From positions 1 to 57,905 of IMG/VR virus record IMGVR_UViG_3300013006_000040: DNA of 57,905 nucleotides. One strand, written 5' to 3'. A model generated the notes under the pieces. It did no database searches, had not been told where the DNA came from, and worked only from the letters and a program-made list of their open reading frames with translations. This stretch comes from a virus (lineage: Duplodnaviria; Caudoviricetes). A program made the position numbers and the translations under genes. The stretch's first letter is position 1. Every line of letters starts with the position of its first letter. Shown here one piece after another: positions 19,368 through 57,905 of the stretch.

Positions 19368-19372
19368 ATTAA
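19303..19372. repeat. ~70-bp direct repeat, copy 1 (gene start)
   Basis: Matches 20393-20462 except at one base. Confidence 0.92.
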
Positions 19373-20457
19373 CGTAAACTACTAGTAAAAATTATTGTTC
19401 CGGGTGAAGAAAACTTGTATATTAAATTTCCTGAAGTGTTTGAGAGTATTACATTACTACCTGTTACTGTTGCGTTTGCGTATAATATAGGATGTGAAAA
19501 TATAACTACACCCGAACCGCCTGCGGCACCCGCACCACTATATCCTGAACCTGTTCCGCCACCCCCACCTGAGAATGCCGTGCCTGCTGTTCCAGCAGTG
19601 GTACTGGGACCGTTTGCACCATTACCGCCACCACCTAGACCCCCTGCAGTAGGGCCAGAATTAATATGACTACCGCCACCCCCACCACCTGCATAATACT
19701 TAGGTGATCCTTCTATATCTAAATTAATACCAATACCGCCTGCAGGAGAATATCCTCCTCCTGGGGCAGGTTCACCCACTCCCCCTGCGCCACCACCACC
19801 GCCTCCCGATCTGCTTGCGCCCGAACCTGCACCTGCTACTCCTGGATATCCCTGAGCACCGGTCGGCGTGTAAAATAATGCTGCTGGACTAGGAAAACCA
19901 GATCCAACACCGACTGTTGTACTTTCCCCGGGTGCGCCACCACCCGAACCACCACCATGCACAGGTGCATTGTATCCCGCAATTGCTCCCCTACCTGCGC
20001 CTCCACCAAATGCAGTTAAGGTAAGTGCACCGCCGATAATTGTTGTGGGTGTGCCTGTAGTAGCACTTGTCGGATCACCTCCGGGACTTGCCGCACCTCC
20101 ACCGCCTACTGTAATTGCATACGGAGTTCCTGAAGAAATAGATAATGTATTACTTGTTAATACGCCACCAGCACCACCTCCAGAACCAGCATTACCTCCG
20201 CCACCGCCACCGCCGGCGATTGCAAGGAATCTAACGGAGGATAGCGGTGAAATTGCTGGCGGAGTCGGAGGAGCAGTATATGGAGCATTAGCATAAAGAT
20301 AATTTACTCCATTAAATGCAGGTATATTATATTCAACCCAAGATGCAGTTGTTCCGTTTAAAGGAACAAGCTTATATATTTTATTAGTGAGGGGATTATA
20401 CCACTCGTCGCCAAGTGCGCCGCTAGGTGGTTGAGTGTTTGATGTTATAAAAGCCAT
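19369..20457 (-). CDS. Glycine-rich virion adhesin/tip protein
   Basis: First 22 aa identical to 14838..19367; one Gly-rich domain. Confidence 0.85.
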   Translation of the reverse strand: MAFITSNTQPPSGALGDEWYNPLTNKIYKLVPLNGTTASWVEYNIPAFNGVNYLYANAPYTAPPTPPAISPLSSVRFLAIAGGGGGGGNAGSGGGAGGVLTSNTLSISSGTPYAITVGGGGAASPGGDPTSATTGTPTTIIGGALTLTAFGGGAGRGAIAGYNAPVHGGGSGGGAPGESTTVGVGSGFPSPAALFYTPTGAQGYPGVAGAGSGASRSGGGGGGAGGVGEPAPGGGYSPAGGIGINLDIEGSPKYYAGGGGGGSHINSGPTAGGLGGGGNGANGPSTTAGTAGTAFSGGGGGTGSGYSGAGAAGGSGVVIFSHPILYANATVTGSNVILSNTSGNLIYKFSSPGTIIFTSSLR

Positions 20458-20462
20458 ATTAA
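20393..20462. repeat. ~70-bp direct repeat, copy 2 (gene start)
   Basis: Matches 19303-19372 except at one base. Confidence 0.92.
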
Positions 20463-25802: not shown

Positions 25803-26720
25803 TTACGTGTTATACGTCCCGGGGCCGATGTATGTTATTACTGTTTTGCTGCCGGCAGTTGTGATACTAGAAGAACCTGGAGCAGAACCCGGATATTTTG
25901 CAGTAGGTATAGCTATAATACAAGCGCCGCCCCCACCCTGGCCGCCCACCATGGTTGGGCTATTTCCAGGTCCCATATTGCCAGGTACTGCTCCATTACC
26001 TGTACCTGGAGCGCCGGCTATCCCTATAGCGGGAGAGGTCCAGATTTGCGGATTAGTATTTCCACCTCGCCCATATGTAACAGTATTAACTGGCCATGTA
26101 TAACCTGCGCCACCTCCGCCACCACCCGTGCCTGGGTTAGGACCCTGGCCGCCAGCACTGGTTGCCCCACCGCCACCATAACCAGCCGAACTACCTCCGG
26201 GGCCGCCCCCTGGGTTTCCTAAATTCTGCGTTATAAAACTATATGAAGGTCCTAGATTTTGCAAGGGTTGTATACCGACACCAAATGCGCTAAAACCGCC
26301 CCCACCAGAACCACCTGGGCCGCCAGTATAAGTAACCGAAAGAGGAGATCCACTCGAACCTCCGCCTCCACCCACAGCGTTGATCGGCACACCCGGCCCA
26401 GTGTAAGGGGTTGTTAAATAACTATTTGACCCCATACCGCCAACGAAGCTTCCCGTGCCCCCACCACCTATAGTAAATGTAACAGGAAAAGATGCTCCTC
26501 CACCTGGCACATTAAAAGACCCAACTACTACGCCTCCGGCGCCACCCGCAGATCCTTGACCATATGCTGCACCATTACCGTTGCCCGCGCCGCCACCCCC
26601 ACCTACAAGCAAAAATTCTAGTGTCCATGGCGAATTACTACTGATGGGAAGAAGACTTGCAGAATTTAATCTGTTAATAGGATTAGCAAAATTTCTTGCC
26701 GCGTGGCGCTTAGTGGACAT
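25803..26720 (-). CDS. Glycine-rich tip protein, cassette A3
   Basis: Arg-rich N-peptide ending RLNSASL; one Gly-rich domain; TAATG overlap with the adaptor gene. Confidence 0.82.
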   Translation of the reverse strand: MSTKRHAARNFANPINRLNSASLLPISSNSPWTLEFLLVGGGGGAGNGNGAAYGQGSAGGAGGVVVGSFNVPGGGASFPVTFTIGGGGTGSFVGGMGSNSYLTTPYTGPGVPINAVGGGGGSSGSPLSVTYTGGPGGSGGGGFSAFGVGIQPLQNLGPSYSFITQNLGNPGGGPGGSSAGYGGGGATSAGGQGPNPGTGGGGGGAGYTWPVNTVTYGRGGNTNPQIWTSPAIGIAGAPGTGNGAVPGNMGPGNSPTMVGGQGGGGACIIAIPTAKYPGSAPGSSSITTAGSKTVITYIGPGTYNT

Positions 26721-27052
26721 TAATAAATCTCTGAGCCAAAAACGTTAAAGGATACATTACCCTGAAAAGAATAAACTTGTATTGTATCTGTTGCATCTAA
26801 AGTCATACCCATTGTTAATCCAATTGCATCTTGTGCTGGTAATGCTGTATCATATGCAATATATGAATTAGATGGAGTGGGAGTAATACCTCCCCTTAGT
26901 ACTGCAATTCTAAATGTTACATTAGTTGCAGATGTGTTACATATATTTAATGTGGAAATAACAGCGCTATTTCCCGCAGGTACCGTATATAATGTCGCAT
27001 TTGCGTTTGCCGCAGGAAAAGCTTGCCCGAGAATTTTATATTTAATTGCCAT
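26720..27052 (-). CDS. ~110-aa fibre adaptor-like protein, cassette A3
   Basis: Paralog of 43920..44249 and 46471..46803 (KILGQ...YTVPAG...ALPAQD...YSFQGNV...FGSE). Confidence 0.85.
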   Translation of the reverse strand: MAIKYKILGQAFPAANANATLYTVPAGNSAVISTLNICNTSATNVTFRIAVLRGGITPTPSNSYIAYDTALPAQDAIGLTMGMTLDATDTIQVYSFQGNVSFNVFGSEIY

Positions 27053-43011: not shown

Positions 43012-43920
43012 TTAGAATGTTATTGTTCCTGAAGCACTAAATTTATAAACTCTATATCCACCGGAAGTAGAATATATTACATTGCTACCTGTGTTTGCAG
43101 TTGCAATTGGATATGCTGTTGGATATCTAAGAACTACAATACCTGAGCCACCTTGTCCTCCAGCAAACGTAGACCAGTGACCTGCTCCACCCCCACCTCC
43201 AGTATATTCATTTCCTGCTGTCCCGAAAGTACCGTTTCCGCCTGGGCCCCCTCCGCCTTGTCCTCCGAGTGCCCACTGCCCATTTGATGCACCCCCACCG
43301 CCGCCGGCATAATAACTTACACTTCCGGAAATTGATGATTGAACTCCAATCCCACCGACACCTACAACTTCTCCATTTGCTCCAATTCCGCCAGCTGCAC
43401 CCGCACCACCGCCACCAGAACCACCCGAGCCTGGAGGATATGTGCCTGTACCTGCACCACCCGGATATCCTTGTTGGCTTGGGCTTGGATATCCATAACC
43501 AGAACCTGCAGCTGCGGTAAGATCCTTACCTACACCACCGCCCGAACCTCCAGATCTTCCTGCTAAACCATTTGAACCACCGCCCCCTCCACCCACCGCA
43601 TTAAATATGCCAAAACTTCCTGAGATGTTGGAATTCGCTCCATTAGTCGCAATAGAATATGGCGCGCTGCCCGCAGGTGCGCCTGCTCCGCCGGCTCCGA
43701 CAAGTATAGTATAAGGCAAGGTCGTCGATACTGTTGCAGTTCCTGTCAATAGTCCACCCGCTCCGCCACCGCCGCCGCCGCCGGATCCACCACCGCCACC
43801 ACCGGCTACTATTAAGTATTCTACATTAAAATCATATCTAGAAAGAATTAATGATAAATTAGCAGCAGCATTGAGCCTTTGCGAAGAACCTCTTCTAGAA
43901 GTACCTAGCTTAAAGCCCAT
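43012..43920 (-). CDS. Glycine-rich tip protein, cassette A2
   Basis: Arg-rich N-peptide ending RLNAAANL; one Gly-rich domain. Confidence 0.82.
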   Translation of the reverse strand: MGFKLGTSRRGSSQRLNAAANLSLILSRYDFNVEYLIVAGGGGGGSGGGGGGGAGGLLTGTATVSTTLPYTILVGAGGAGAPAGSAPYSIATNGANSNISGSFGIFNAVGGGGGGSNGLAGRSGGSGGGVGKDLTAAAGSGYGYPSPSQQGYPGGAGTGTYPPGSGGSGGGGAGAAGGIGANGEVVGVGGIGVQSSISGSVSYYAGGGGGASNGQWALGGQGGGGPGGNGTFGTAGNEYTGGGGGAGHWSTFAGGQGGSGIVVLRYPTAYPIATANTGSNVIYSTSGGYRVYKFSASGTITF

Positions 43921-44249
43921 TAGGTAATCTCCGTACCAAATGCTGCAAAACTTACGTTACCCTGAAATGAATATGCTGTAATAACATCTGTATTACCTAA
44001 AGTCATACCTAAAGATACAGCCATTGTGTCTTGTGCTGGAAGAGCAGAATCAAACACAATAAAATGTTTAGATGTACCCGTTACGCCTGCTGGTCTAATT
44101 GATAATCTAAATGTAACATTGGATGTAGATTGATTACATACATTTACTGTTGAAATAATTGCGCTGGTGCCGGCTGGAACAGTATACAAATTTACATTTG
44201 CACCTGCTGCTGGAATTTCTTGTCCTAAAACTTTATATGTATACGCCAT
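43920..44249 (-). CDS. ~110-aa fibre adaptor-like protein, cassette A2
   Basis: Paralog of 26720..27052 and 46471..46803. Confidence 0.85.
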   Translation of the reverse strand: MAYTYKVLGQEIPAAGANVNLYTVPAGTSAIISTVNVCNQSTSNVTFRLSIRPAGVTGTSKHFIVFDSALPAQDTMAVSLGMTLGNTDVITAYSFQGNVSFAAFGTEIT

Positions 44250-44259
44250 TTATTTTTCC

Positions 44260-45444
44260 TTACAATAGTGATAACAGAAACGGATGTATCTGTTCCTGCA
44301 CAGTTGCATTAATTTGTCCGTTAGCTTGGACTACTATGTTTTGACCGCCAACGTATGTTTGTGTACCATTTAGTGTTGGTAGTTCTCTAATCTCTACAGT
44401 TATACCAGCTCTTGGTGGAGTAGCAAATCTTAATACTCCGCCACTTGCAGAATAATCTATTCCTGGAACTTGAGCAACGCCGTTTTCAAATACCAGAATA
44501 CTTGAGTCTGTAAAATTATTACTTATTGATGCTACATTAGCTGAGCCATTACCATAAAATAATCTACTGTTAAAATCTTTAGCTAAAACTTGAGTTACAT
44601 CAAGTATTCTAACATCTATGTCTGCATTTGCTGCAGGATATCCGCTTAATACTAAAGTATTGCCGGATAAAGTATATGCATTGGATAATTGTGTTACACC
44701 GTTAATAATAACAGTAATATAATTATTATTCGTAGGTGTTATTGGAAGAGCATAATTTAGTAACTGGGCATTACCTTTAAATGTGGCAATGGATGGTCTA
44801 AATACTGCTCCACCTGAGAATGCGGCCTGTGCTCTCGCATTTGAGAAGTATAAGTTTGCGCCACCTTCAGCCAAATTAGCAGTTGTAAATGCTGCTAAAG
44901 ATGTTATACCTGTGGAATTAGATCTAATCTGACCATTAGCTTCAATTACAATCGTTGCATCTGTTGATAAATTTGAACTAATCTGACCATTGGCTTGGAT
45001 TGTAATATATTGGCCAGCTAAGCTAGGTAAAAATGCTATAACATTACTGTTGACACGAGCGTTAGTATAATAAAGATTTGTTAACTCTGCTACATTTGAT
45101 GTTGTTAAGTCAGTTGTATTTGCTTTTAGTGCAAGATTACCCACAATCGCGGAATAAACTCTTGCATTGGTATAATAAAGATTTGAACCCTCAGCAACAT
45201 TTGATGTTGTTAGGAATTGGCTAATTGTATCAAATGTTACTGTAGCAGCATTTGCATTTATCTGTCCATTGGCTTGAATCTGTATACCCGATCCAGCTAA
45301 TGTTGGTAACAATGCGATTACATTGGAGTAAACTCTGGCATTAGTGAAGTAAAGATTACTACCTTCAACTAAATTAGCGGTAGTTAGACCGGCTAATATG
45401 TTGCCTGTGTCTCTAATCTGCGATATGAATATACTTCGTGCCAT
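44260..45444 (-). CDS. Fibre shaft protein, cassette A2
   Basis: Four TT-x-N-x2-E-x2-NLY(Y/F)-x-NAR repeats; two NG-x2-Q...Y beta-domains; ends HPFLLSLL. Confidence 0.82.
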   Translation of the reverse strand: MARSIFISQIRDTGNILAGLTTANLVEGSNLYFTNARVYSNVIALLPTLAGSGIQIQANGQINANAATVTFDTISQFLTTSNVAEGSNLYYTNARVYSAIVGNLALKANTTDLTTSNVAELTNLYYTNARVNSNVIAFLPSLAGQYITIQANGQISSNLSTDATIVIEANGQIRSNSTGITSLAAFTTANLAEGGANLYFSNARAQAAFSGGAVFRPSIATFKGNAQLLNYALPITPTNNNYITVIINGVTQLSNAYTLSGNTLVLSGYPAANADIDVRILDVTQVLAKDFNSRLFYGNGSANVASISNNFTDSSILVFENGVAQVPGIDYSASGGVLRFATPPRAGITVEIRELPTLNGTQTYVGGQNIVVQANGQINATVQEQIHPFLLSLL

Positions 45445-45484: not shown

Positions 45485-46471
45485 TTACCCTAGATAGCCT
45501 GTAGTGTCTATTAGATATCTAATAATAACTTTTCCAGAACCACCCGCGCCCGCAGAACCACCCGACCAATTACCGCCACCTCCACCGCCAGAATTAATGG
45601 TACCGGGTTGATTATTATTATTAGCATATGTGTCACCAAACCCTCCCCCGCCGGCGCCACCAGATCCACCGATATTTAGAGGAGAAAATGCATCCGATCC
45701 TCCACCGCCTCCTGCATAGTATGTAGAATATCCAGATATTGTAGATATGCCACCAGCGCCACCATCGCCAGCTTGAGGTCCAGAAGTACCTGCCGCTCCT
45801 CCACCACCACCGCCTACCCCATCACTACCCCCTACTCGAAGAGTCTTTGATACCCCAGGAGTAGCTGACCCCCCAGAATTTCCTTGCCCAGGTGTACCGT
45901 TACCGCCCACACCTCCATAAAAATTACCACCAGCACCGCCACCCGATCCGCCAGGCCTACCATTCTTTTGAGTATTTGCTGGAGAGGGTGTAGAATCTCC
46001 AACCCCGCCGCCGCCGCCACCGCCTAGCGATTGAATAGTTGAAGGTGTTACTGTACTATTGAAAATAATATTACTAGGCGAACCATCATTACCATAGGTA
46101 ACACTCGGGCCACCCGCACCGCCACCCCCGATTCGGATAACATTATTTGCTGTTTGTGTAAATGTTACGTTACCAGATAATATACCGCCACCGCCACCAC
46201 CTGCACCTCCTGCGGTAGCACCTGAACCGCCACCGCCAATAATTAAATAATCTATTACATTATAGGTAGGCGAGGTTACAGATAAACCGGTAATAGATAA
46301 ATTAGATGATGCATTAAATGAATGTATTCTGTAACCACCTACATTTGTTTGGATTCCGCCGGTCACCTGCATGGTAGAATAATATCTACTTGCGATAAAT
46401 GCTAGATTAGCAGAGTTTACTCTATTATTAATAGATACAGTACTTCTCTGCGAATGTCGACGAATTGGCAT
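45485..46471 (-). CDS. Glycine-rich tip protein, cassette A1
   Basis: Arg-rich N-peptide ending RVNSANL; one Gly-rich domain. Confidence 0.82.
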   Translation of the reverse strand: MPIRRHSQRSTVSINNRVNSANLAFIASRYYSTMQVTGGIQTNVGGYRIHSFNASSNLSITGLSVTSPTYNVIDYLIIGGGGSGATAGGAGGGGGGILSGNVTFTQTANNVIRIGGGGAGGPSVTYGNDGSPSNIIFNSTVTPSTIQSLGGGGGGGVGDSTPSPANTQKNGRPGGSGGGAGGNFYGGVGGNGTPGQGNSGGSATPGVSKTLRVGGSDGVGGGGGGAAGTSGPQAGDGGAGGISTISGYSTYYAGGGGGSDAFSPLNIGGSGGAGGGGFGDTYANNNNQPGTINSGGGGGGNWSGGSAGAGGSGKVIIRYLIDTTGYLG

Positions 46472-46803
46472 TAATTAACCTCTGAACCAAACAATGTAAA
46501 GGTTACATTGCCTTGAAATGAATATACTGTTATTTTATCTGTCGCCGCCAAAGTCATACCTAAAGAAAGACCTAATGCATCTTGTGCAGGTAATGCTGCA
46601 TCATATACTATTGCCTGCGATGTTGTGTTACCTGCCGCACCTGCAATTCTTGCATATACTCTAAATGTTACGTTGGATTGAGTAGTATTACATACATTTA
46701 TTGTGGAAATAATAGCACTGTTACCTGCAGGAACTGTGTATATGTCATAATTTGTAGCGTTTGTGGGCATTGCTTGCCCTAAAATTTTAAATGTTGTTGC
46801 CAT
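46471..46803 (-). CDS. ~110-aa fibre adaptor-like protein, cassette A1
   Basis: Paralog of 26720..27052 and 43920..44249. Confidence 0.85.
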   Translation of the reverse strand: MATTFKILGQAMPTNATNYDIYTVPAGNSAIISTINVCNTTQSNVTFRVYARIAGAAGNTTSQAIVYDAALPAQDALGLSLGMTLAATDKITVYSFQGNVTFTLFGSEVN

Positions 46804-46812
46804 AATTTTTCC

Positions 46813-47952
46813 TTATAATCCGCTAAGCATAAACGATATTGGATTAACTCCGCCGATTACTGTTGTAGTTGAATTAATAGTAGATGTTGTTCCAAAATAT
46901 CTAATTTCAAGATTAGATCCCACTGGATATTGTGTAGTAGTTGTTAATGTTGTACCAGATACTGTGTAATCTGTCGTTGGTATTTGTATCAAACCCTCAT
47001 TTATAACAAATATAGATTCGGGATTTGCCACTGATCTTGACATTGTATATGTTGTCGTTGCCGCTAATATAGATATTGTTTCTGTTGCAGCAACAGTAAT
47101 TCCAACAATATTTGCACTAATTTGACCATTGGCCAATATGCTAACATTTTGACCAGCTAATGAAGGTAATAGACCAATTACATTAGAAGAGACTCTTGCG
47201 TTGGTATAGTAAAGATTTGAGCCTTCAGCCAAGTTGCTAGTTGTTAATCCTGCTAATGATACTGTAGCAGTACTAGCATTGATTTGGCCATTCGCTTGAA
47301 TCTGTATACCAGAGCCAGCTAATGAGGGTAATAGACCAATTACATTTGAATAAACTCTTGCATTGGTGTAATATAAATTACTACCTTCAACTAAATTAGC
47401 AGTAGTGAAATTGCTTAATGATAGTACAGTATTGGCTACATTTGAAGATGTTGCGAATCCAGATGTTGCTGATGCATTTGCATTTATCTGTCCATTAGCT
47501 TGAATCTGTATGCCTGAACCTGCCAATGTAGGCAATAATGCAATTACATTTGAATAAACTCTGGCATTGGTATAATATAAATTGCTACCTTCTGCAACAT
47601 TAGATGTTGTTAGATAAGGTAATACTGCGGATATTACTCTGGCATTGGTATAATAAAGATTGGATCCTTCTGCAACATTAGATGTTGTTAGGAATTGACT
47701 AATTGATGCGAATGTTACTACAGCAGCATTTGCGCTAATCTGACCGTTAGCCTGTATAGCAATACCGGAACCAGCCAATGCAGGCAATAATGCTATTACA
47801 TTTGAATATACTCTTGCATTAGAGAAGTAAAGATTTATACCTTCAGTAATATCCGAAGTTGATATAACCTGAGCCGTAGGCCAATCGTTGCCTACTTGTC
47901 TCAAGTAAGCTGTACCTAAATTAAATATACCTCGACTATTAATTATTGACAT
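46813..47952 (-). CDS. Fibre shaft protein, cassette A1
   Basis: GIF...LRQ-x-GNDWP N-terminus; five shaft repeats; ends NPISFMLSGL. Confidence 0.82.
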   Translation of the reverse strand: MSIINSRGIFNLGTAYLRQVGNDWPTAQVISTSDITEGINLYFSNARVYSNVIALLPALAGSGIAIQANGQISANAAVVTFASISQFLTTSNVAEGSNLYYTNARVISAVLPYLTTSNVAEGSNLYYTNARVYSNVIALLPTLAGSGIQIQANGQINANASATSGFATSSNVANTVLSLSNFTTANLVEGSNLYYTNARVYSNVIGLLPSLAGSGIQIQANGQINASTATVSLAGLTTSNLAEGSNLYYTNARVSSNVIGLLPSLAGQNVSILANGQISANIVGITVAATETISILAATTTYTMSRSVANPESIFVINEGLIQIPTTDYTVSGTTLTTTTQYPVGSNLEIRYFGTTSTINSTTTVIGGVNPISFMLSGL

Positions 47953-47990: not shown

Positions 47991-50948
47991 TTAAACGTAC
48001 GGGTATCTAATAATAATAATACCCGAAGCGCCGCTGCCGCCCGCATAATTACCGCCGCCCCCCGATCCTCCAGAACCGCCGCCCCCAGTATTTTGCAATC
48101 CACTTAAACCTACGTTATCGTTTTGACCATTTGCTCCTCCACCATAACCTCCAAGTTTTCCACTATACACCGTCGGCCAACCGGTGGAGCCTGCGCCACC
48201 ACCAAAATATCCTTTACCGGATACATTGCTTACAGAATTGGTTACATTGGTTCCGTATCTATCAAAATTCGCAAAATATTTACCTCTACCACCTTGGCCT
48301 GGATATGTTGCGTCGTTATAAGCAAATCCGCTAGTGCCCATACCCCCACCAGAAGATCCGGCACCATTTCCTAAGTCACTTAAACCAAATGCACTTAATG
48401 TATTTCCAGATGCCCCGCCGTATCCTCGTATGTTAATATCCCCGTTATTATGAGACACGCAATATTGTCCCCGGAAACCTGTCTGTGCAAACCCAATCGT
48501 ACCGCCAGATAAAATACTTGAACTTGTACCATTCGCAGAATCACCTGCAGGATAACCTGTGCCTCCTGCGCCACCACCACCCACAAGCATACCAAAATTA
48601 TTTACAGTTGCGGTAATAGATCCGGTATTTCCATTACCGCCACCACCACCGCCTCCGCTATAAAATGTGCCGTTACCTGCAGCACCGCCGCCACCGGCAC
48701 CAATAACTAGATAATCCATAGAATTATTAGCAGGAGTAACAGTAGCTACTGAATTTACAAGTAAATTACCCGATGTAGTAAATGAATGATACTTATATCC
48801 ATTCACTATTGTTATATTTCCACCTGTTGCATTAATGTAGAAGTCTGAAACATTATATAGTACAACATTACTACTACTGGTTATTGATATTGGGCCTGTT
48901 GTAGAATCTTGTCTTATTTCTAATCCAAAAATCTTAGATACATCTAGTATTGCACTGCTATTTGTTTGCAGGGTGATCGTTGCACCCGTAGTATTTGCCG
49001 TAAATGAACCAGTATTTCCACCAATGAAATGCGAGGAATTTGCATTACCTGATGTAGAATAATATAATGTAGTACCGTTTGCATTTAGAACAGAAAGATT
49101 AAATATTACATTTCCGCCAGTTAATACGTTGGTTGAACTTGTTGTTAGAGTTGTAAAGTATTGTCCGGTAAATGGATATCGTATAATAACAATGCCAGAA
49201 CCGCCCGTTCCGCCCGCATTATATACTGATGGAACAGGAGTTGTGGCTGGAATACCTGCGCCACCTCCGCCTCCCCCAGTATTAATAGTACCAGGAGTGC
49301 CTCCTGAACCAGATCCACCTCCACCGCCTCCGCCAGCGCCACCGCCACCGGCATATCCAACGAAAGGCCCAGGCGTTGGGTGACCTCCGTTGGATCCTCC
49401 TCCGCCGCCACCAGCAAAATACCCGCTAGGGCCCCAAGTACCAAATGCTGTAGGATTTCTACCAACACCACCTGAAGCAGAAAAACTACCATATGGTTGT
49501 GGTGATTCATTAGTAGCTGCGCCACCCGCCCCACCCCCAGCAGCAGCATTTGAACCATTTGGACCTTGTGCAGAATTACCTGGGTATCCCTCTGTAGCAA
49601 TACCGGTTCCATTTGCTCCAGGTTGGCCGCCGCCACCCGAACCGCCAGGATAACCTACACTACCTGAATATCCGCCGGCACCGCCTCCTGTGGTCGAAAC
49701 ATTAGTCCAACTTGGTCCTGTGCCAGTAATTGAACTTGGATTTCCTTGTACACCTGGACTAGGACTAGATGGGGCGGTGCCACCGGCGCCAACTGTTATT
49801 GTATAATTTTGTCCCGCAGCAACATAATTTGCAGGTTGTGCTGTAGAACTTGGGCCACCTGATAATTCGCCTGATACATTTAATTTATAACCTCCGGCGC
49901 CTGCACCTGAGCCTTTACCTGCGTTATTTGTAGGTCCTCCGCCTCCCCCTCCTGCAACAACTAAATATTCAATAGCTCCGCCAGTTGTACCTATACCTGT
50001 AACAGATAGATTTGAAGATGTATTAAAGGTATGATACTTATAGCCATTAAGAACTGTTATATTACCGCCAGTAGCGGCCATTTGTGTTAGAGAAGAATCA
50101 TTTATTAATAAGTTATTACTTGTGGCTAATACTGTTCCTGTTACAGAATCTCTTCTTATTCTTACTCGGAAATCTACAGATGTTCCATATGGGACTGCTG
50201 AAGTTGTAACTAATGATATAGTATTAGAAACACTATTCATTCTAAATGAACCTGTATTTCCGCCAGTAAAGTTTGAGGTTGTTACGTTACCGGTGGTATC
50301 ATAATATAGCAATGTACCTGCAGATATATTAATAACATTCGCTGTTAATGTTAACGTACCACCCTCAGTTGCACTACTTGCGCTTTCAACAAAACTCAAT
50401 ACATTGTACTGATTGGATGTATCTAGAACTGTTACGTTGGATGATGTGATAACAACATTACCGTTAGTATTATTAGTTCTAATTTGCAGTGTAAACGCTT
50501 CAGTTGTTTCATCAAATAAAGATACGTCAGCGTTTGTAGTTAACCTAAGTGTTCCCACGTTATTTGCGATAGTAATTACACCAGTATTGCCACCAACAAA
50601 GTCATTGCTATTTACGTTGGCTGTTATTATAGAATTTGTAGTATAATATACATTAGTACCGTTTACAACATTAGATGTCGTTAATGTATATAATATTACG
50701 TTGCCCTCTGCTGCTGTAGTTGCATTTGCTGTTAAACTAACAATAGTTGTTGTATCAGGAATAGTAATAGTATTTGATGTGCCAATAACTGTGCCTGTAA
50801 ATCCTTCTTTGCGAAGTTTAACTACGAATGTTTTTGTACCTTCAAATGCAAAAGCTGATAAAGGCAAAACAATATTGGCCAAGCCACCTGCTACTGTGAC
50901 TGTACCTTGAAGCGCATTTGCTGCGAAATTACTTGCGAATATTGGCAT
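47991..50948 (-). CDS. Tip protein, cassette B2, with Ig/Calx-beta-like repeats and two Gly-rich domains
   Basis: Starts with a partial Ig-like domain, followed by intact copies and two polyglycine domains. Confidence 0.82.
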   Translation of the reverse strand: MPIFASNFAANALQGTVTVAGGLANIVLPLSAFAFEGTKTFVVKLRKEGFTGTVIGTSNTITIPDTTTIVSLTANATTAAEGNVILYTLTTSNVVNGTNVYYTTNSIITANVNSNDFVGGNTGVITIANNVGTLRLTTNADVSLFDETTEAFTLQIRTNNTNGNVVITSSNVTVLDTSNQYNVLSFVESASSATEGGTLTLTANVINISAGTLLYYDTTGNVTTSNFTGGNTGSFRMNSVSNTISLVTTSAVPYGTSVDFRVRIRRDSVTGTVLATSNNLLINDSSLTQMAATGGNITVLNGYKYHTFNTSSNLSVTGIGTTGGAIEYLVVAGGGGGGPTNNAGKGSGAGAGGYKLNVSGELSGGPSSTAQPANYVAAGQNYTITVGAGGTAPSSPSPGVQGNPSSITGTGPSWTNVSTTGGGAGGYSGSVGYPGGSGGGGQPGANGTGIATEGYPGNSAQGPNGSNAAAGGGAGGAATNESPQPYGSFSASGGVGRNPTAFGTWGPSGYFAGGGGGGSNGGHPTPGPFVGYAGGGGAGGGGGGGSGSGGTPGTINTGGGGGGAGIPATTPVPSVYNAGGTGGSGIVIIRYPFTGQYFTTLTTSSTNVLTGGNVIFNLSVLNANGTTLYYSTSGNANSSHFIGGNTGSFTANTTGATITLQTNSSAILDVSKIFGLEIRQDSTTGPISITSSSNVVLYNVSDFYINATGGNITIVNGYKYHSFTTSGNLLVNSVATVTPANNSMDYLVIGAGGGGAAGNGTFYSGGGGGGGNGNTGSITATVNNFGMLVGGGGAGGTGYPAGDSANGTSSSILSGGTIGFAQTGFRGQYCVSHNNGDINIRGYGGASGNTLSAFGLSDLGNGAGSSGGGMGTSGFAYNDATYPGQGGRGKYFANFDRYGTNVTNSVSNVSGKGYFGGGAGSTGWPTVYSGKLGGYGGGANGQNDNVGLSGLQNTGGGGSGGSGGGGNYAGGSGASGIIIIRYPYV

Positions 50949-50952
50949 ATCT

Positions 50953-52572
50953 TTATTCTATGGTGTAATATAAAACGGTGCCTTCTGGCACTGAAGTATT
51001 AAATGTAACTATTGCTGTATTGGCAGCTGATACTGATGGAGACGTAAAACTTACAGTAGTTTGTTCAGTCTTTCTATATGATGTAAATACTGCTATAGAA
51101 TCAGCATTGCTTGAATTTGCATAACTTGCGTATAATGCATCATATTGTTTCAATGCTTTAGGTGATTGTAATATCTCAAGAGAGGATCCTGCGGGCACTT
51201 GCATATTATATGCCAAGTATGCTTTTGGAACTGCTGTTGTAGAGTTGGCAAAATATAATTTAACTGGAATGTTTGTTGGTTTTAGATTAACAAACTTTAT
51301 ACTTTCAATAACAAAATCTGTTGTGTCTGCTGTTACTAATGATACGTTTGAATTTGCATTTGCCAGTGTTTGACCTACGCCTACATAGGAAACATCATTT
51401 GTAATTGTTTCATAAGTTAAGTATGCGGATAAAATATTACTAGTGGGTGTAAAATTATTATCGAATCCTTGGAAGTATAATGAATCACCAGATTGTAAAA
51501 TTTGTGTTCTATTGATAAATTCAACAAATCCACCTAACGGAACACTGATTAAATTACCAAGATAAGCAGTATTGCCTGCAGAATATCTTACGTTAGCAGA
51601 AACATATGCCAAATTGCTTTCAGATATGTTTGTAATTTGTATAGATCTAATAATGAATCTATCTGCAGCAATTGAACCTGTAAATGTTACACCTGCCATA
51701 ATATTAGATACAGTATATGCTGTTGCGCCGGTTAAACTAATATTGTAATCGCCACCTGCGGCAGTGCTCTTGATTGTACCATCACCAAGAATAGAAATAC
51801 CTTTACCTGCAGTAAATGCTGTTCTGGCTCTTGTATTGGTGTAGTAAAGGTTTGACCCTTCTGCTAAATTGGTAGTGCTTAATCCTGCTAATGATACCGA
51901 TTGCGTATTTGCATTAATTTGACCATTGGCTTGTATGTTAATGCCTGTACCAGCCAATGTGGGTAACAATGCGATTACATTGGAATAAACTCTTGCATTA
52001 GTATAATAAAGATTTGTTAATTCTGTTACATTAGCAGTTGTTAAATCTGTTACATTTGCCTTTAATGCAAGATTACCTTGTATTGCTGAATAAACTCTAG
52101 CATTAGTATAATAAAGATTAGATCCTTCTGCAACATTTGATGTTGTCAAATACGGAAGAACTGCAGATATTACTCTGGCGTTAGTATAATAAAGATTAGA
52201 TCCCTCTGCAACATTTGATGTTGTCAAATACGGAAGAACTGCAGATATTACACGAGCGTTAGTATAATAAAGATTCGATCCCTCAGCAACATTAGATGTT
52301 GTTAATAATGAAGAAACAAACGATAATACTCTAGCGTTGGTATAATAAAGATTTGTTAACTCAGATACATTTGCTGTGGTTAGATCAGAAACATTAGCCT
52401 TTAAAGCCAAATTACCTGATACTGCAGCATTTACTCTGGCATTTGTAAAGTAAAGGTTAGTACCTTCGGTTATATCCGAAGTTGATAGAACCTGAGCCGT
52501 AGGCCAATCGTTTCCTGTTTGTCTAAGGAATACGTCAGCTGTATCAAATATACCTTTGTTGATTATCGTCAT
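50953..52572 (-). CDS. Fibre shaft protein, cassette B2
   Basis: GIF...LRQ-x-GNDWP N-terminus; seven shaft repeats; two adaptor-like domains; ends GTVLYYTIE. Confidence 0.82.
   Translation of the reverse strand: MTIINKGIFDTADVFLRQTGNDWPTAQVLSTSDITEGTNLYFTNARVNAAVSGNLALKANVSDLTTANVSELTNLYYTNARVLSFVSSLLTTSNVAEGSNLYYTNARVISAVLPYLTTSNVAEGSNLYYTNARVISAVLPYLTTSNVAEGSNLYYTNARVYSAIQGNLALKANVTDLTTANVTELTNLYYTNARVYSNVIALLPTLAGTGINIQANGQINANTQSVSLAGLSTTNLAEGSNLYYTNTRARTAFTAGKGISILGDGTIKSTAAGGDYNISLTGATAYTVSNIMAGVTFTGSIAADRFIIRSIQITNISESNLAYVSANVRYSAGNTAYLGNLISVPLGGFVEFINRTQILQSGDSLYFQGFDNNFTPTSNILSAYLTYETITNDVSYVGVGQTLANANSNVSLVTADTTDFVIESIKFVNLKPTNIPVKLYFANSTTAVPKAYLAYNMQVPAGSSLEILQSPKALKQYDALYASYANSSNADSIAVFTSYRKTEQTTVSFTSPSVSAANTAIVTFNTSVPEGTVLYYTIE
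52103..52290. repeat. 78-bp tandem repeat (about 2.4 copies) in the shaft gene
   Basis: TTAGTATAATAAAGATT recurs at 52103, 52181 and 52259; encodes LTTSNVAEGSNLYYTNARVISAVLPY. Confidence 0.9.
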
Positions 52573-52591
52573 CTTTTTTCTTTATACTGTA

Positions 52592-52599
52592 TATTTATG
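52592..52599 (-). promoter_or_regulatory. T4-type late promoter variant
   Basis: CATAAATA upstream of 52572. Confidence 0.7.
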
Positions 52600-52602
52600 G
52601 CA

Positions 52603-54789
52603 TTAGAATATTATGGTACCTGAACTGTAGAATGAATATATTAGGTTAGATCCGTCTGAGGTATAACTTACATTAGATCCTGTCACCGTTGCTGGTCTAA
52701 ATGCGCCAGGATATCGGAATATCGCTACACCCGATTCACCTGCAGCTCCACCTCCACCTAGACCCCCACCTTGGCCGCCTCTACCATAGTAGCCTGTACC
52801 CGGAGTTCCTGCGCCAGATGGTGATCCGCCACCTCCACCGCCAGCATAAACTACAGAAGTACCAGTAATTGATGACGGTAAACCATTTCCTCCAGAACCA
52901 CCTGGGCCGTCTGAATTTCCAGCTCCACCTATTGCACCAGCACCACCACCACCGCCACCGCCCCGTGTGCTACCTGAACCTGAACCTGAGCCACCCGGAT
53001 AACCTTGTTGTGTTGGACTTGGATATCCATAACCACTACCTATGCCGGCTCCGTCTGAGCCACCGCCACCTGAACCACCATTTGTAGTTCCACCCGTGTT
53101 TGAACGACCAGCGCCACCGCCAACTGTAATTAATAGATTGGATGTGGGACTAGATAATATTGTGTTAGCGCCACTAGTGGCTGAAGTAGTTGCGTATACT
53201 CCGGCTGCACCTGCCGCACCTACTGTAACGGTATAAGATGTGCCTGCAGTTACAGGATATGATGCCGATGTGGTAAATCCACCAGCACCACCGCCACCTC
53301 CAGAGCCAGCGCCTGACTGACCAAAGCCACCGCCACCGCCGCCTGCAACTAATAGATAATCTATGCTAGATGTACCTGCTACAGTTACGGGATAACGTAT
53401 AATAGCTATACCGGAACCGCCAGAACCAGCTAAATAAGATGGACTAGCTCCGCCTCCACCTCCACCGCCGGTATTTACGTTTCCGCCAAATGCCTGCAAA
53501 GCCTGAGGACCAGCCATTGCTCCACGACCACCACCACCAGATCCACCATCACCTGGGGTACCAGTATTTGCGTCAGTTGAGCCACCGCCCCCTCCAGAAA
53601 AATGTCTACCGGGTGCTGGCCCAGGTGTGCCATAAGATGAGGGTATACCTGCAAAGGTAGGAACAAGACCAATACCACCAACGCGAGGACCATTTTGAAA
53701 TCCATTAAATGTTGCACCTGCGCCACCTGCGCCACCGCCACCTGCGCTGGACTGTCCTATTGGATTGGAACCTATAATGCTTCCTCCAGGATAACCCTGT
53801 GAGCCTGCAATATTTAAACCTGGGCTGCCTATAGCCAGCCCTCCCGGGGCTCCTCCAGGACTATCACCTGCACCGCCACCACCTGATCCCCCAGGTTGAC
53901 CATTTTGCACAGGTGATACATAATCGTCACCGCCGCCGCCCCCAAATGCAATAGCACCAAATATACTCGTATTGGCTCCCTGACCGCCAAGTGTATTTCT
54001 GGCAGGGGCCGCAGTACCGCCGGCACCTACAATAATACTACTAGTACCAGAAATAGAAATATTTCCCATTAATATACCGCCTGCCCCTGCACCAGAGCCA
54101 GGGTATGGATTGGAAGCGCCTATTGCCCCTCCACCTCCACCCGCAACTAACATATAATCTATAGTAATGTTAGATGAAGGATTTGATATTACAAAATTAT
54201 TAGATGATTGGAATACGTGATACTTATATCCGCCGAATGTGAATGTGTCATTACCTCCAGATGCATTAATTTCTGCATTAGATGTATCTAATACGTTAAT
54301 AGTATTTGAAGTATAAACTATATTACCTGCAATATTACTTGTTCTAATATCAACTCTAAATGATTCTACACCTTCTGTTATATTATCTGCATTTGAATTA
54401 AATGTAAACGATCCTGTATTATTATTAATTGTTATAATACCAGTATTTGCACCTATAAAATCAGGAAGATTTATATTTGAGGTGTAGTAAACATTGGATC
54501 CGTTAACAGCATTTGCCGTTGTCAAGGTAAATGTCACTGCCTGTCCCTCATTAATTGAGGATACATTAGAAGTTAAACTAACAACAGAACTCGAATCCTG
54601 TAATGTTATCGTTGGAGATACTGCAAGTACTTCGCCGGTTGGACTACCGTTTCTTAATTTAATTACAAAAGATTTGTTACCTTCTAGTGCATAAGGAATA
54701 GTATCAAGTGAGATATTTGCAAAGCCGTTAATAACACTAACGGTGCCCGATAATGAGTTTGATCTAAAATTACTTGCGGAGATTGGCAT
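52603..54789 (-). CDS. Tip protein, cassette B1, with Ig/Calx-beta-like domains and two Gly-rich domains
   Basis: Starts MPISASNF (paralog of MPIFASNF); two polyglycine domains. Confidence 0.82.
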   Translation of the reverse strand: MPISASNFRSNSLSGTVSVINGFANISLDTIPYALEGNKSFVIKLRNGSPTGEVLAVSPTITLQDSSSVVSLTSNVSSINEGQAVTFTLTTANAVNGSNVYYTSNINLPDFIGANTGIITINNNTGSFTFNSNADNITEGVESFRVDIRTSNIAGNIVYTSNTINVLDTSNAEINASGGNDTFTFGGYKYHVFQSSNNFVISNPSSNITIDYMLVAGGGGGAIGASNPYPGSGAGAGGILMGNISISGTSSIIVGAGGTAAPARNTLGGQGANTSIFGAIAFGGGGGDDYVSPVQNGQPGGSGGGGAGDSPGGAPGGLAIGSPGLNIAGSQGYPGGSIIGSNPIGQSSAGGGGAGGAGATFNGFQNGPRVGGIGLVPTFAGIPSSYGTPGPAPGRHFSGGGGGSTDANTGTPGDGGSGGGGRGAMAGPQALQAFGGNVNTGGGGGGGASPSYLAGSGGSGIAIIRYPVTVAGTSSIDYLLVAGGGGGGFGQSGAGSGGGGGAGGFTTSASYPVTAGTSYTVTVGAAGAAGVYATTSATSGANTILSSPTSNLLITVGGGAGRSNTGGTTNGGSGGGGSDGAGIGSGYGYPSPTQQGYPGGSGSGSGSTRGGGGGGGAGAIGGAGNSDGPGGSGGNGLPSSITGTSVVYAGGGGGGSPSGAGTPGTGYYGRGGQGGGLGGGGAAGESGVAIFRYPGAFRPATVTGSNVSYTSDGSNLIYSFYSSGTIIF

Positions 54790-54793
54790 ATTC

Positions 54794-57700
54794 TTATTCT
54801 ATTGTGTAATATAAACCGGTGCCTTCGTTCGCAGAAGTGCCAAACGATGCTGTTATAGTATTTCCAGGTAATCCTGCGGAAGTATATGTTCCAATTGTAT
54901 ATGCCGCACCATATCTTGCTGATACAAATGCCGATACGCCATTAGTTGCTCCGCCAGTATAGCTCGCATATAATGCATCACCTTGATTTATACGCTTCGT
55001 AGATTGTAACAATTCTACAGATGTGTTAGGTGGTAATTGTAAACCAAATGCCAAATGAGCTTTTGGCACACCGTTTGCATCACCCCAATAACACGTAACG
55101 GGAACAGTTGTGGATTGAAGATTTACAAACTTAACACTTTCAATAATACTAAATGAGTTCGCGGAATTATATATCTTCGTATTAGTACCAGATGTAGCTA
55201 TCGTCTGACCTGTGCCCATATAACTATTATCGTTATAGAACGTCTCGTATGTTAGCATTACGGACATTAAATTCGCAGTAGCTGTACCTGAATTATTAAA
55301 TCCCTGCAAGTTAATTTGGTCGCCTGGTTGGAATATTTGATATGTTTTAATAAATTCCATTACTCCACCAGGTGCAACCGGGATTATATTTGCCATATAT
55401 GCTGTGTTACCTGTAGCATATAAAACATTACTTGATACTAATGCTGTTGCGCCAGATGTATTTACCAAATGCAATGAGCGTAATAAGAATCTATCATTTG
55501 CTGCAGTTGTTGGGAATGTTATTACTGGCGACATTGTTGCCAGTACGTTAGCTCCAACTGTGCCATCAATACCGGTGTTATACTGTGAAGAAGAACCTGT
55601 ATTATTAACAATACCGCCTTCACTAATAGTAATACCTTTACCTGCGGTGAATGCTGTTCTGACTCTAGTATTGGTGTAATAAAGATTTATACCCTCTGCA
55701 ACATTTGATGTAGTCTGATTAGATAATGAAATTACCTGTGCTGCAAGATTAACAAAGTCTGATTGAAGTATAGTAACATTAGATAAATCTAAGTTTGCAC
55801 TAATTCTACCATTTGCCTGAATAATAATATTTTGACCTGCCAATGTAGGCAATAATGCAAGCACATTGGAATAAACACGAGCATTTGTAAAGTATAGATT
55901 TGTACCTTCAACTACATTAGAAGTGATTAAATCGACTACATTTGCTTTGGTTGATAAATTACCCTGGATTGCCGCATAAACTCTTGCATTAGTATAATAT
56001 AAATTGCTACCCTCTACTACATTTGAAGTAGTTAAATAAGGTGTTATAGCTAGTGCAACGCGAGCATTTGTAAAGTATTGGTTAGTGCCTTCTGCTAAAT
56101 TAGCAGTTGTAAAGTTACTTAGTGTTCCCGCAGTGCCTGATACATTACCAAAGAATGTTGTTGCTGCAATATTAGCTAATCTAAATGATGCGTGAGCTGT
56201 ATCAATAAAGATGTTAGCATCGGGTTCTGGATCATAATTATCAAATACCTTGAATGTGCCATTGTCGGATGCGTCTCTAAAGAAACCACCGTGATGATAA
56301 ACACCATCATTATAATTAAATGCAAAGCCTATATCAGGATTCGAAACAGTGGAGTTCGAATTCAAATATATCATATTATCCGAAACGGATATATTATTTG
56401 CACCGTATGTAGTTACACCGCCGTATACAGTTAAGTTATTTGTAACACTAAGATTAAAGAATGTTACATTAGCAGTTGATGCTACATTCTGTCCAATTGA
56501 TATTGCACCTGTAGTTGTATCATAACTTACACCAGTGCCACCACTTAAAGCAGATCTTACTCTAGTATTGGTATAATATAAATTAGAATTTGATTCTAAT
56601 ACGTTAGCAGTAGTTAAAAGAGGAGTAACTGCAGTTATAACTCTACCATTGGTATAATATAAATTATTATTACCTTCGGTTATGCTATTAGTAGTCAAAT
56701 TACTAATAGTCGAATTTAAATTAGCAATTTCAAGATTTACATTTGCGCTAATTCTACCATTAGATTCAATTACAATATTATCGCCAGCAATAAATGCGGT
56801 TCTAACTCTAGAATTGGTATAGTATAAATTGACGTTTGCTTCTAATAAGTTTGCTGTAGTAAGTCCACTTAAAGATAATACAGTATTTGCAACATTTGCT
56901 GTTAGAGCAATATTGGCTGTGCCGGCGGTGTTAGCAAACAACGCAATATTTGCTGTTGTACCTGAGTCTATAGTGCCTGCAACAAAACTTGCACCATTCC
57001 AAATTAATATACCGTTGGTAGTAATACCTGTTGTATCGACGTCTGAAAATATATTAACACTTTGCTGGGATAAATTAGCAGTTACTCTTGCATTAGTGAA
57101 GTATTGATTAGTGCCTTCTGCTAAATTAGATGTAGTAAAATTAGATAATGAACTTATTGTACCTGTTACATTACCTACAAATGAGTTGGTAACTACAAGA
57201 TTGCCTGTAGTAATATTTGAAGCCGTAAGACTAACTAAGGTTAGACCCGTTTGCGCATTGCCTGATATCTTCTGACCACCGACATATAATGACTCTGCAC
57301 TTAAGTAAAAGTCTTTCCATTGTTTATCTAATGATCCAAAATTGAATGTGGAATCTAGAGACGGTATAATGTTACCAGTAATAAGTATATTACCAGAAGA
57401 GGCAAGCAAATTCCCGGTTTGAATATATGATGCGGATATTAAATTGGCACCTGTTAAGGAACCACCTGATCCTGCACCGAACGTAGTGCTACCAGATATG
57501 CTAACATTGCCTATAGTTGCATTACCTATAGCAATATTACCTGCTAATAATGCTATTACATTAGAATAAACTCTGGCATTGGTATAATATAAGTTTGTGC
57601 CTTCTGCTACATTTGAAGTAGTTAAGTATGGAAGGACTGCAGATATTACGCGAGCATTTGTATAGTAAAGATTGGAATTTGATTCTAATACGTTTGCCGT

Positions 57701-57905
57701 AGTTAAATAAGGAGTTACTGCTGATATAACACGAGCATTGGTATAATATAAATTAATACCTTCTGCTAAATTTGCTGTGGTGAAATTGGATAATGTACTT
57801 ACTGTACCAATTAAATTACCATATATCAATCTCGATATAATTGCATTACCTGCAAAAATATTTGCTGCAGTAAAATCTGTGGCTGTTCCGGTGGATGTTG
57901 TTACT
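54794..57905 (-). CDS. Long fibre shaft protein, cassette B1 (5' end outside the window)
   Basis: Frame stays open from 57829 to the window end; 11 shaft repeats; two adaptor-like domains; ends GTGLYYTIE. Confidence 0.85.
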   Translation of the reverse strand, partial: VTTSTGTATDFTAANIFAGNAIISRLIYGNLIGTVSTLSNFTTANLAEGINLYYTNARVISAVTPYLTTANVLESNSNLYYTNARVISAVLPYLTTSNVAEGTNLYYTNARVYSNVIALLAGNIAIGNATIGNVSISGSTTFGAGSGGSLTGANLISASYIQTGNLLASSGNILITGNIIPSLDSTFNFGSLDKQWKDFYLSAESLYVGGQKISGNAQTGLTLVSLTASNITTGNLVVTNSFVGNVTGTISSLSNFTTSNLAEGTNQYFTNARVTANLSQQSVNIFSDVDTTGITTNGILIWNGASFVAGTIDSGTTANIALFANTAGTANIALTANVANTVLSLSGLTTANLLEANVNLYYTNSRVRTAFIAGDNIVIESNGRISANVNLEIANLNSTISNLTTNSITEGNNNLYYTNGRVITAVTPLLTTANVLESNSNLYYTNTRVRSALSGGTGVSYDTTTGAISIGQNVASTANVTFFNLSVTNNLTVYGGVTTYGANNISVSDNMIYLNSNSTVSNPDIGFAFNYNDGVYHHGGFFRDASDNGTFKVFDNYDPEPDANIFIDTAHASFRLANIAATTFFGNVSGTAGTLSNFTTANLAEGTNQYFTNARVALAITPYLTTSNVVEGSNLYYTNARVYAAIQGNLSTKANVVDLITSNVVEGTNLYFTNARVYSNVLALLPTLAGQNIIIQANGRISANLDLSNVTILQSDFVNLAAQVISLSNQTTSNVAEGINLYYTNTRVRTAFTAGKGITISEGGIVNNTGSSSQYNTGIDGTVGANVLATMSPVITFPTTAANDRFLLRSLHLVNTSGATALVSSNVLYATGNTAYMANIIPVAPGGVMEFIKTYQIFQPGDQINLQGFNNSGTATANLMSVMLTYETFYNDNSYMGTGQTIATSGTNTKIYNSANSFSIIESVKFVNLQSTTVPVTCYWGDANGVPKAHLAFGLQLPPNTSVELLQSTKRINQGDALYASYTGGATNGVSAFVSARYGAAYTIGTYTSAGLPGNTITASFGTSANEGTGLYYTIE

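Follow-up and report, generated by a model that had tools for sequence, protein, structure and literature searches.

In chaperone-usher pili, donor-strand complementation and donor-strand exchange complete the fold of a pilin that lacks one strand with a single donated strand. SpyTag/SpyCatcher, derived from CnaB2, is an engineered split immunoglobulin (Ig)-like domain, cut in a loop, whose parts reassemble spontaneously and are locked by an isopeptide bond. Multi-gene or branched fibres are built by T4 (gp34-gp37) and by the T5-like phage DT57C (LtfA/LtfB), and, to our knowledge, the known joints of multi-gene fibres dock whole folded domains or N-terminal adaptors. Ig-like C-terminal extensions made by programmed frameshifting are described for Listeria phages PSA, A118 and A500, where a +1 shift at CCC_UGA extends structural proteins, as well as for T3 and Lactobacillus phage A2, and related phages may reach the Ig-like extension by +1, −1 or in-frame decoding (PMC5009743). 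Here we analyse a single contig of 57,905 bases from an uncultured freshwater T4-like phage (IMG/VR record IMGVR_UViG_3300013006_000040; the whole stretch is hereafter called the window), in which two pairs of adjacent minus-strand genes, each encoding a fibre shaft (A1, A2) and a Gly-rich tip (B1, B2), divide one Ig-like domain between them. We consider it likely that coupled genes yield shaft and tip as two separate chains in near-equal amounts, and that the two halves of the domain co-fold into one Ig-like sandwich which fixes the tip to the shaft. Full-text literature searches, with most subscription journals and supplements outside their coverage, returned no description of a domain split between two fibre genes.

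By analogy, the closest known principle would be the fold completion in trans of chaperone-usher pili, of which the phage case may be a variant: in both, an incomplete Ig-like fold would be completed by another chain and the completed fold would serve as a non-covalent fibre joint. Unlike in pilins, the cut lies near the middle of the domain, leaving about three strands on one chain and four to five on the other, with no chaperone or usher; the split also differs from pili in its origin by gene fission, to which single-chain relatives point, in its recurrence and in its phage-fibre setting. T4-like and branched fibres likewise have consecutive genes for proximal and distal parts that are joined non-covalently. 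SpyTag/SpyCatcher shares with the locus an Ig-like domain cut in a loop, whereas here the split is natural and shows no sign of a covalent bond. As in the frameshift extensions, an Ig-like module stands at the C-terminus of a structural protein, with a stop at the boundary and the downstream part often in another frame. In those phages, however, the whole Ig-like domain follows the slippery site (CCC_UGA; PMC5009743), whereas here the gene boundary runs through the domain itself, the frame varies, some junctions are unfusable and a conserved ATG of its own starts the downstream gene.

An Ig-like domain divided at two gene junctions

In both modules one domain is divided at the same loop, as the original prediction, made from the letters alone, had claimed. 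Shaft A1 (54794..57904, minus strand; at least 1036 amino acids, the 5′ end being cut by the window; stop codon TAA at 54794-54796) is made up of NLYYTNARV-type repeats, a tandem β-sandwich C-terminal region and a terminal half-domain, and matches phrog_697 (structural protein) and phrog_33244 (tail fiber). It ends in ...GTSANEGTGLYYTIE, a type of C-terminus that recurs in homologues P0086, P0087, P0089 and P0092, and its last 37 residues (...GLYYTIE; 54797..54907, minus) hold the first half of the split domain. After a gap of 4 nucleotides without a Shine-Dalgarno (SD) sequence (54790..54793, minus; GAAT on the coding strand), tip B1 (52603..54789, minus; 728 amino acids) opens with the second half, residues 1-65 (MPISASNF...TITLQD; 54595..54789, minus), which is followed by one intact Ig-like repeat (67-168) and two Gly_rich_2 stretches. 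Shaft A2 (50953..52572, minus; 539 amino acids) consists of an N-terminal GNDWPTAQV motif, NLYYTNARV repeats, a tandem jelly-roll-like region and the half-domain, the latter placed by profile alignment in the last 37 residues (...TVLYYTIE; 50956..51066, minus); its C-terminal end is ...NTSVPEGTVLYYTIE. The gap to B2 is again 4 nucleotides (50949..50952, minus; AGAT on the coding strand), and tip B2 (47991..50948, minus; 985 amino acids) carries the second half-domain (residues 1-65, MPIFASNF...TITIPD; 50754..50948, minus), three intact Ig-like repeats (67-176, 180-284 and 596-697) and two Gly_rich_2 stretches. Gly_rich_2 (PF21722) is matched above the gathering score of 24.3 bits by both tips, B1 with 108.7 bits (E = 5.8e-31) and B2 with 57.7 bits.

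The two halves were recognised with a hidden Markov model (HMM) of 105 match positions, trained on the four intact repeats inside B1 and B2. The shaft tails align with its beginning (A2 residues 504-537 with positions 2-38, E = 1.5e-3; the A1 tail with positions 11-38, at 6.8 bits when scored alone) and the tip heads with its remainder (B1 residues 14-65 with positions 53-105, E = 6.5e-4; B2 residues 14-64 with positions 53-104, i-E = 3e-6). Each partner alone is thus an incomplete Ig-like fold, the shaft tail covering positions 2-38 only and the tip head positions 53-105 only. Scored singly, the four fragments reach 6.8, 15.5, 16.8 and 24.7 bits; joined in silico, tail and head give one full-length domain hit in every combination (A1+B1 25.8, A1+B2 32.1, A2+B1 33.6 and A2+B2 39.9 bits), to be compared with 22.2 ± 2.5 bits (maximum 28.3) for 30 joins of a shuffled A2 part to B2.

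B2 residues 1-175 were modelled with AlphaFold2 (33-row alignment, mean predicted local distance difference test (pLDDT) score 82.6), which shows the intact repeat as a β-sandwich with strands at 68-74, 84-92, 99-106, 122-126, 131-138, 150-157, 165-168 and 172-174. The loop after the third strand holds a short helix at the SNDF motif, and it is to this loop that the cut maps. Structural comparison of the repeat with VIA-align gave effectively tied matches, with Z between 8.0 and 9.7, to a macroglobulin (MG) domain of the alpha-2-macroglobulin/C3 type (4u48_A, Z 9.7, root mean square deviation (rmsd) 2.4, 90 residues aligned), to intimin (6tpl_B, Z 9.5) and to the calcium-binding domains (CBD) of Calx-beta type (2lt9, Z 8.6, rmsd 3.3, 99 aligned; 3ead, Z 8.2; 3us9, Z 8.0). 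Foldseek placed intimin D00-D0 at E = 7.6e-5 and NCX1 CBD12 (3us9) at rank 22 (E = 8e-4). No hit to the Pfam Calx-beta family (PF03160) was obtained with A1, A2, B1 or B2 at E ≤ 1, nor with the isolated intact repeat and four single-chain homologues at E ≤ 10, and no Pfam family was found for the split domain. Because the structural matches spread over MG, intimin and Calx-beta domains and a Pfam hit is lacking, the term 'Ig-like' is justified; membership in the Calx-beta family, the other part of the earlier label 'Ig/Calx-beta-like', is rejected at the sequence level, and the name applies no further than to a generic Ig-like fold.

The part of A2 that precedes the tail (residues 20-243, counted within the C-terminal 280) is modelled at pLDDT above 90 as two tandem jelly-roll-like sandwiches, and the last 37 residues, modelled alone, are the least confident folded part (pLDDT 60-69). 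The top Foldseek matches of the A2 C-terminal 280 residues (50956-51795), at template modelling (TM) scores of 0.27-0.36, are double-jelly-roll capsid proteins (STIV, PRD1 P3, PR772) and PHM.

Read along the coding strand, each junction consists of ATA GAA TAA, then AGAT (A2/B2) or GAAT (A1/B1), then ATG CCA AT; the protein ends and starts quoted in the original prediction are exact. The absence of a strong SD was also borne out: in front of B1 and B2, SD-like sequence amounts to TAAG and TAA only, as against TAAGGAG, AGGAG or TAAGGA at spaced genes of the window, and an SD is absent at other tightly spaced genes of the window as well. A patch of 60 nucleotides at the two junctions (50926-50985 and 54767-54826) is 90% identical, synonymous sites included, between flanks of 50% and 52% identity; it could reflect constraint, a bias in codon use, or conversion of one module's gene by the other's.

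Conservation of the split among relatives

A word-indexed search with the C-terminal 280 residues of A2 as the query collected 103 proteins including the query (39-95% identity), and in 101 of them the chain stops at the same residue, with the C-terminus [LIV]YY[TS][ILV][ER]. The ends are LYYTIE (42), LYYTLE (33), LYYSIE (9), LYYTIR (7), IYYTIE (6), LYYTVE (2) and VYYTIE (2); of the two exceptions, P0105 stops inside the upstream domain and P0106 diverges. From alignment-based scans came 18 viral and 54 metagenome loci, one of the three patterns of the metagenome scan being the C-terminal motif, which biases this set toward the motif and not toward any gap. Together with the two junctions of the window, the 48 loci whose match reaches the C-terminus make a set of 50 junctions. 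The next open reading frame (ORF) begins with the second half-domain (M[PAST].. ..NF) in 49 of the 50; in the remaining one (L046) the contig ends 60 nucleotides past the stop and the same start is still visible. Removal of 14 duplicates leaves 35 distinct junctions, and among these the second half-domain begins the next gene in 35 of 35.

The mean fraction of the majority residue is 0.67 in the half-domain of B and 0.66 in the adjacent intact domain, and the last 10 residues of A (0.82) are the most conserved stretch of its half-domain. Residue conservation shows that both half-domains are under constraint, apparently to an equal degree.

In a tblastn search of 50,697 phage records with A2, similarity was confined to the NLYYTNARV repeats and to cyanomyophages, with no record covering at least 80% of the query, and no cultured relative with the split was found among these records. 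A single-protein scan of viral contigs with the C-terminal 280 residues of A2 returned no relatives.

To a sequencing or assembly artefact, or a recent pseudogenising mutation, we give practically no chance. The two window junctions are diverged (flanks 50-52% identical in nucleotides), the split recurs in 35 distinct junctions and at the same residue in 101 of 103 homologues, and none of four public runs has an indel at the junctions. Public runs that contain the stretch bear lake or freshwater metagenome labels. A contig of 269 nucleotides from an RNA library covers 50884-51152, including the A2/B2 gap, with 0 differences, although rare variants are invisible in contigs and RNA libraries may hold DNA. 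Another RNA contig (X7) ends at 50947, and some runs have no cover over parts of the stretch, from which nothing is concluded. The artefact reading is refuted, in line with the earlier judgement that a sequencing error was unlikely.

Gap lengths, reading frames and recoding

A fixed gap of 4 nucleotides, as at both window junctions, does not hold for the whole family. After the stop codon (TAA in 31 distinct junctions, TAG in four) the gap is 4 nucleotides in 17, 3 in nine, 1 in four, 5 in three, 2 in one and 14 in one. Its letters vary as well (AGAT, GAAT, AAAA, CACC, T, A and others). The single gap of 14 nucleotides belongs to the junction of L049/L051, ATAGAATAGAATAGAATAAAACCATG, in which the ATAGAA unit stands in tandem and extra stops are included.

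These figures bear on the proposal that a +1 frameshift at GAA_TAA in the window junctions fuses a fraction of the shafts to the tip (YYTIE-K-D/N-MPI...), which would give a continuous intact domain and a product resembling the Ig-like C-terminal extensions of other phage structural proteins. The tip ATG lies in the +1 frame, with a gap of 4 or 1 nucleotides, both in the window and in 21 of the 35 distinct junctions, and +1 extensions at stop codons are on record for the three Listeria phages (PMC5009743). The remaining junctions are in frame (nine, which would require read-through of the UAA to fuse) or in +2 (five). Since related phages use +1, −1 or in-frame decoding, variability of the frame alone is not decisive against recoding. 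A check on whether the genes can be fused at all, made on 37 junctions (the 35 plus L077 and L083), found a stop in the tip frame inside the gap in four, so that no frameshift could fuse those. In all 21 '+1' junctions a TAG (from ATA GAA or TTA GAA) closes the tip frame until 2 nucleotides before the stop, which leaves a shift possible on the last sense codon only; in three '−1' cases the tip frame is open for 13-43 nucleotides. That last codon, before TAA or TAG, is GAA (GAG in L047, AGA in L023), and, in contrast to CCC_U or CUU_U, cannot re-pair in +1. The stronger arguments against recoding are the four unfusable junctions and the missing slippery codon; the RNA-library contig likewise has no indel, though contigs would miss rare variants. 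Taken together, we regard recoding at the window junctions as very unlikely, and the junction sequences do not support obligatory +1 recoding as the mechanism of the family. Of the two options of the original prediction, fragment complementation or +1 recoding, it is the former that gains from the conserved C-terminus, the second half-domain at every distinct junction, the single-chain relatives and the co-fold comparison given below.

The short gaps without an SD fit a coupling of termination and reinitiation. If A and B are translated as two polypeptides from tightly coupled adjacent genes in this way, synthesis would be close to 1:1, and the N-terminus of a new B chain would emerge near the C-terminus of the A chain just finished.

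Single-chain relatives and evolution of the split

Searched exhaustively with phmmer, 1.84 billion representatives yielded 249 hits; the analysis covered the best 150. Re-scoring of 246 collected proteins against the 280-residue query divided them into 156 split, 12 that run on, 45 that end before the domain and 33 other or fragmentary. The 12 proteins that run on, a class defined by at least 40 residues past the cut, are 25-35% identical and single-chain: they continue without interruption (...LYYTLE-EVSGNITQDDF...) into intact repeats and Gly_rich_2, as in ...LLYYTLE-EVSGNITQDDFVTPISGEVTIQ...EGPDIFRLQLRKGS..., and P0176, P0190 and P0169 match PF21722 at their C-termini. The same arrangement is seen in DNA at L073 and L074. 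Homologues can thus be fused, as the original prediction had proposed to check; that applies to these 12 distant relatives, while the 4-nucleotide gap is kept in about half of the distinct junctions. L015, L017 and L018 represent a third arrangement, with a shaft gene that ends ahead of the domain and a tip that starts with a leader of about 28 residues (MAISGILTS...WPT) followed by the intact domain; at L010 and L011 such a domain is missing from the next gene.

We built a tree with FastTree from 229 rows of the upstream region only, leaving out the half-domain columns and dropping fragmentary matches. One clade unites 146 split rows, together with P0136, which breaks off 3 residues after the upstream domain. 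Three further split proteins (P0170, P0172 and P0181, ending in LYYEIQ plus GI, EV or AV) fall among the single-chain forms. This second type of split is exemplified by L083, where ...LYYEIQGI is followed by TAA, 2 nucleotides and the ATG of MPINQQDFVTPLTG...LQANADLNTLFEGDETF... (start MPINQQDF). The cut lies in the same loop, and the half-domain resembles that of the single-chain forms (LQANADLNT..EGDETF), not that of the main split clade. A quick IQ-TREE analysis of a random sample of 52 of the 229 rows (23 main split, 3 second split, 12 single-chain and 14 ending before the domain; P0136, P0185 and P0168 excluded) gave the main split clade a Shimodaira-Hasegawa-like approximate likelihood ratio test (SH-aLRT) support of 96 and placed the second group within a clade formed by 10 single-chain proteins (support 100). 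On the same 52 of 229 rows, the approximately unbiased (AU) test rejected a single clade of all 26 split rows (ΔlnL = 88.5, p = 5e-5). The position of the second group among single-chain forms and the AU rejection show, as far as this upstream region can tell, that the same loop has been cut, or re-joined, at least twice.

Another cut was noticed in a later loop of the second repeat, on one viral contig (L075, 3648+; L084, 1050-1130): ...TYTLVLTTTG is followed by TAA GGAG TAG AA and the ATG of MPIPDNETRFFQLQIR (PIPDNETRFFQLQIR), with a clear SD. L073 and L074, which are 56% identical to L075, are continuous where L075/L084 is cut. A degenerate search for another split of the L075 type returned the same contig and one unrelated hit only.

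Predicted co-folding of the two halves

In the reading that we prefer, the last ~37 residues of A would give strands 1-3 of an Ig-like β-sandwich of ~105 residues, the first ~65 residues of B would give the remaining strands (4-7), and the A tail and B head would fold together in trans. The rebuilt domain would be a non-covalent joint holding one Gly-rich tip chain per shaft chain. The trimer-to-monomer mismatch invoked by the original prediction is not needed by the data, as one tip chain per shaft chain suffices.

The last 45 residues of A2 (27-row alignment) and the first 66 of B2 (33 rows) were co-folded, each with its own alignment. The interaction prediction score from aligned errors (ipSAE) was 0.52, 0.51 and 0.52, against 0.01 for the best of three controls, with at least 98% agreement of contacts between runs and partner pLDDT of at least 75; the outcome is graded as weak support. 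In calibration 58 of 80 solved complexes passed the mark, as did 2 of 110 mismatched pairs; at 0.60 or under, only 7 of the 80 solved complexes passed it, along with both passing mismatches. Given the high prior from the evolutionary evidence, we count the co-fold as modest support, and from sequence and model together we infer that the halves reassemble physically.

Several results weigh against this reading. The value of 0.52 sits in a band in which passes are mostly wrong, except where the prior was high to begin with, the co-fold returned no interface, and the predictor may join the halves through their likeness to intact domains, which would show likeness rather than binding. In the profile comparison, the A1+B1 join (25.8 bits) stays inside the shuffle range calibrated on B2, with a gain of 9 bits over B1 alone, and the crossed joins (A1+B2, A2+B1) match as well as the cognate ones, which means that pairing specificity is not addressed by the sequence data. 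Conservation is lower in the half-domain of A (0.56) than in the remainder of that protein (0.67). Finally, mosaic exchange of fibre modules could mimic independent origins in a tree made from the upstream region only, although the second group's likeness to the single-chain forms extends to its half-domain.

The weak co-fold support and the lack of an interface would also suit halves that do not rebuild a monomeric Ig-like fold, being either remnants of fission, with the tip attached elsewhere, or parts of a swapped intertwining of trimer tails and heads. Two other modules of the window (A3/S3/B3 and A4/S4/B4, described below) join shaft-like, small and Gly-rich proteins without a half-domain, and L015, L017 and L018 place the gene boundary before the domain and use the leader of ~28 residues instead. 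Remnants should decay, yet the repeat pattern is preserved in both halves, conservation of the B half equals that of the intact domain beside it, and within the tail of A the last 10 residues are the most conserved; moreover, the cut is exact over 146 lineages that cluster together and recurs in the same loop. On balance, we think it unlikely that the halves fail to rebuild the fold.

Proximal-distal joining of fibres and the swapping of tips are known for few model phages, and a domain common to two gene products would be a simple joint, conserved in a large group of uncultured freshwater myophages. A broader and more speculative view, which we put forward only tentatively, is that the divided domain acts as nature's 'plug and socket', a standard shaft-tip joint that arose by at least two fissions in the same loop, assembles co-translationally by termination-reinitiation at the SD-less gaps of 1-5 nucleotides and, being conserved between diverging flanks (the 60-nucleotide patch), lets tips swap between shafts by recombination, perhaps with cross-assembly in one virion. 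The locus would also be a rare documented case of gene fission inside a domain, kept by selection and recurrent in the same loop, and, if this holds, it could supply a natural self-assembling pair of protein fragments; natural one-chain and two-chain versions exist for comparison. Annotation pipelines should leave these junctions unrepaired and not treat them as frameshifts.

Genomic context and other fibre modules

Almost all long ORFs of the window are on the minus strand. PHROG matches include the large and small subunits of ribonucleotide reductase, DNA primase, baseplate wedge and virion structural proteins, which indicates a T4-like myophage, and many Gly-rich proteins match phrog_2295. 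Four fibre modules stand in tandem in the 3′ third of the coding strand: A1+B1, A2+B2 and two three-gene modules. In the first of the latter, A3/S3/B3 (46813-47952, 46471-46803 and 45485-46471, minus), a shaft-like protein is followed by one of ~110 residues and a Gly-rich protein of ~300 residues; A4/S4/B4 (44260-45444, 43920-44249 and 43012-43920, minus) has the same plan.

A pair made of a gene for 109-110 residues and a Gly-rich gene for ~300-328 residues occurs in three copies on the minus strand (46471-46803 with 45485-46471, 43920-44249 with 43012-43920, and 26720-27052 with 25803-26720). In each, the second ATG overlaps the first stop by 1 nucleotide and the upstream sequence is conserved (TTTGGnnCnGAGnTT...). 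Similarity of S3 (110 residues) to A2 is weak and local, in the first jelly-roll (E = 0.004 over 35 residues), and the small proteins are at most candidate free copies of the A jelly-roll. Three more large Gly-rich proteins matching phrog_2295 are encoded with 1-nucleotide gaps between them (14838-19367, 19369-20457 and 20459-22423, minus), and the member of 1509 residues also matches baseplate-wedge PHROGs. A scan with the intact-repeat HMM alone revealed no half-domain at the junctions of these genes (14838-22423).

The shafts A2 (52489-52572) and A3 (47869-47952) have in common an N-terminal motif M.IIN.G.F......RQ.GNDWPTAQV. A motif of that sort, or MAISGILTS..NQRVSG.WPT, is also found on the next ORF of L073 and on the tip ORFs of L015 and L017, and, to judge from this distribution, the shared WPT-type N-terminus may be a second kind of attachment adaptor.

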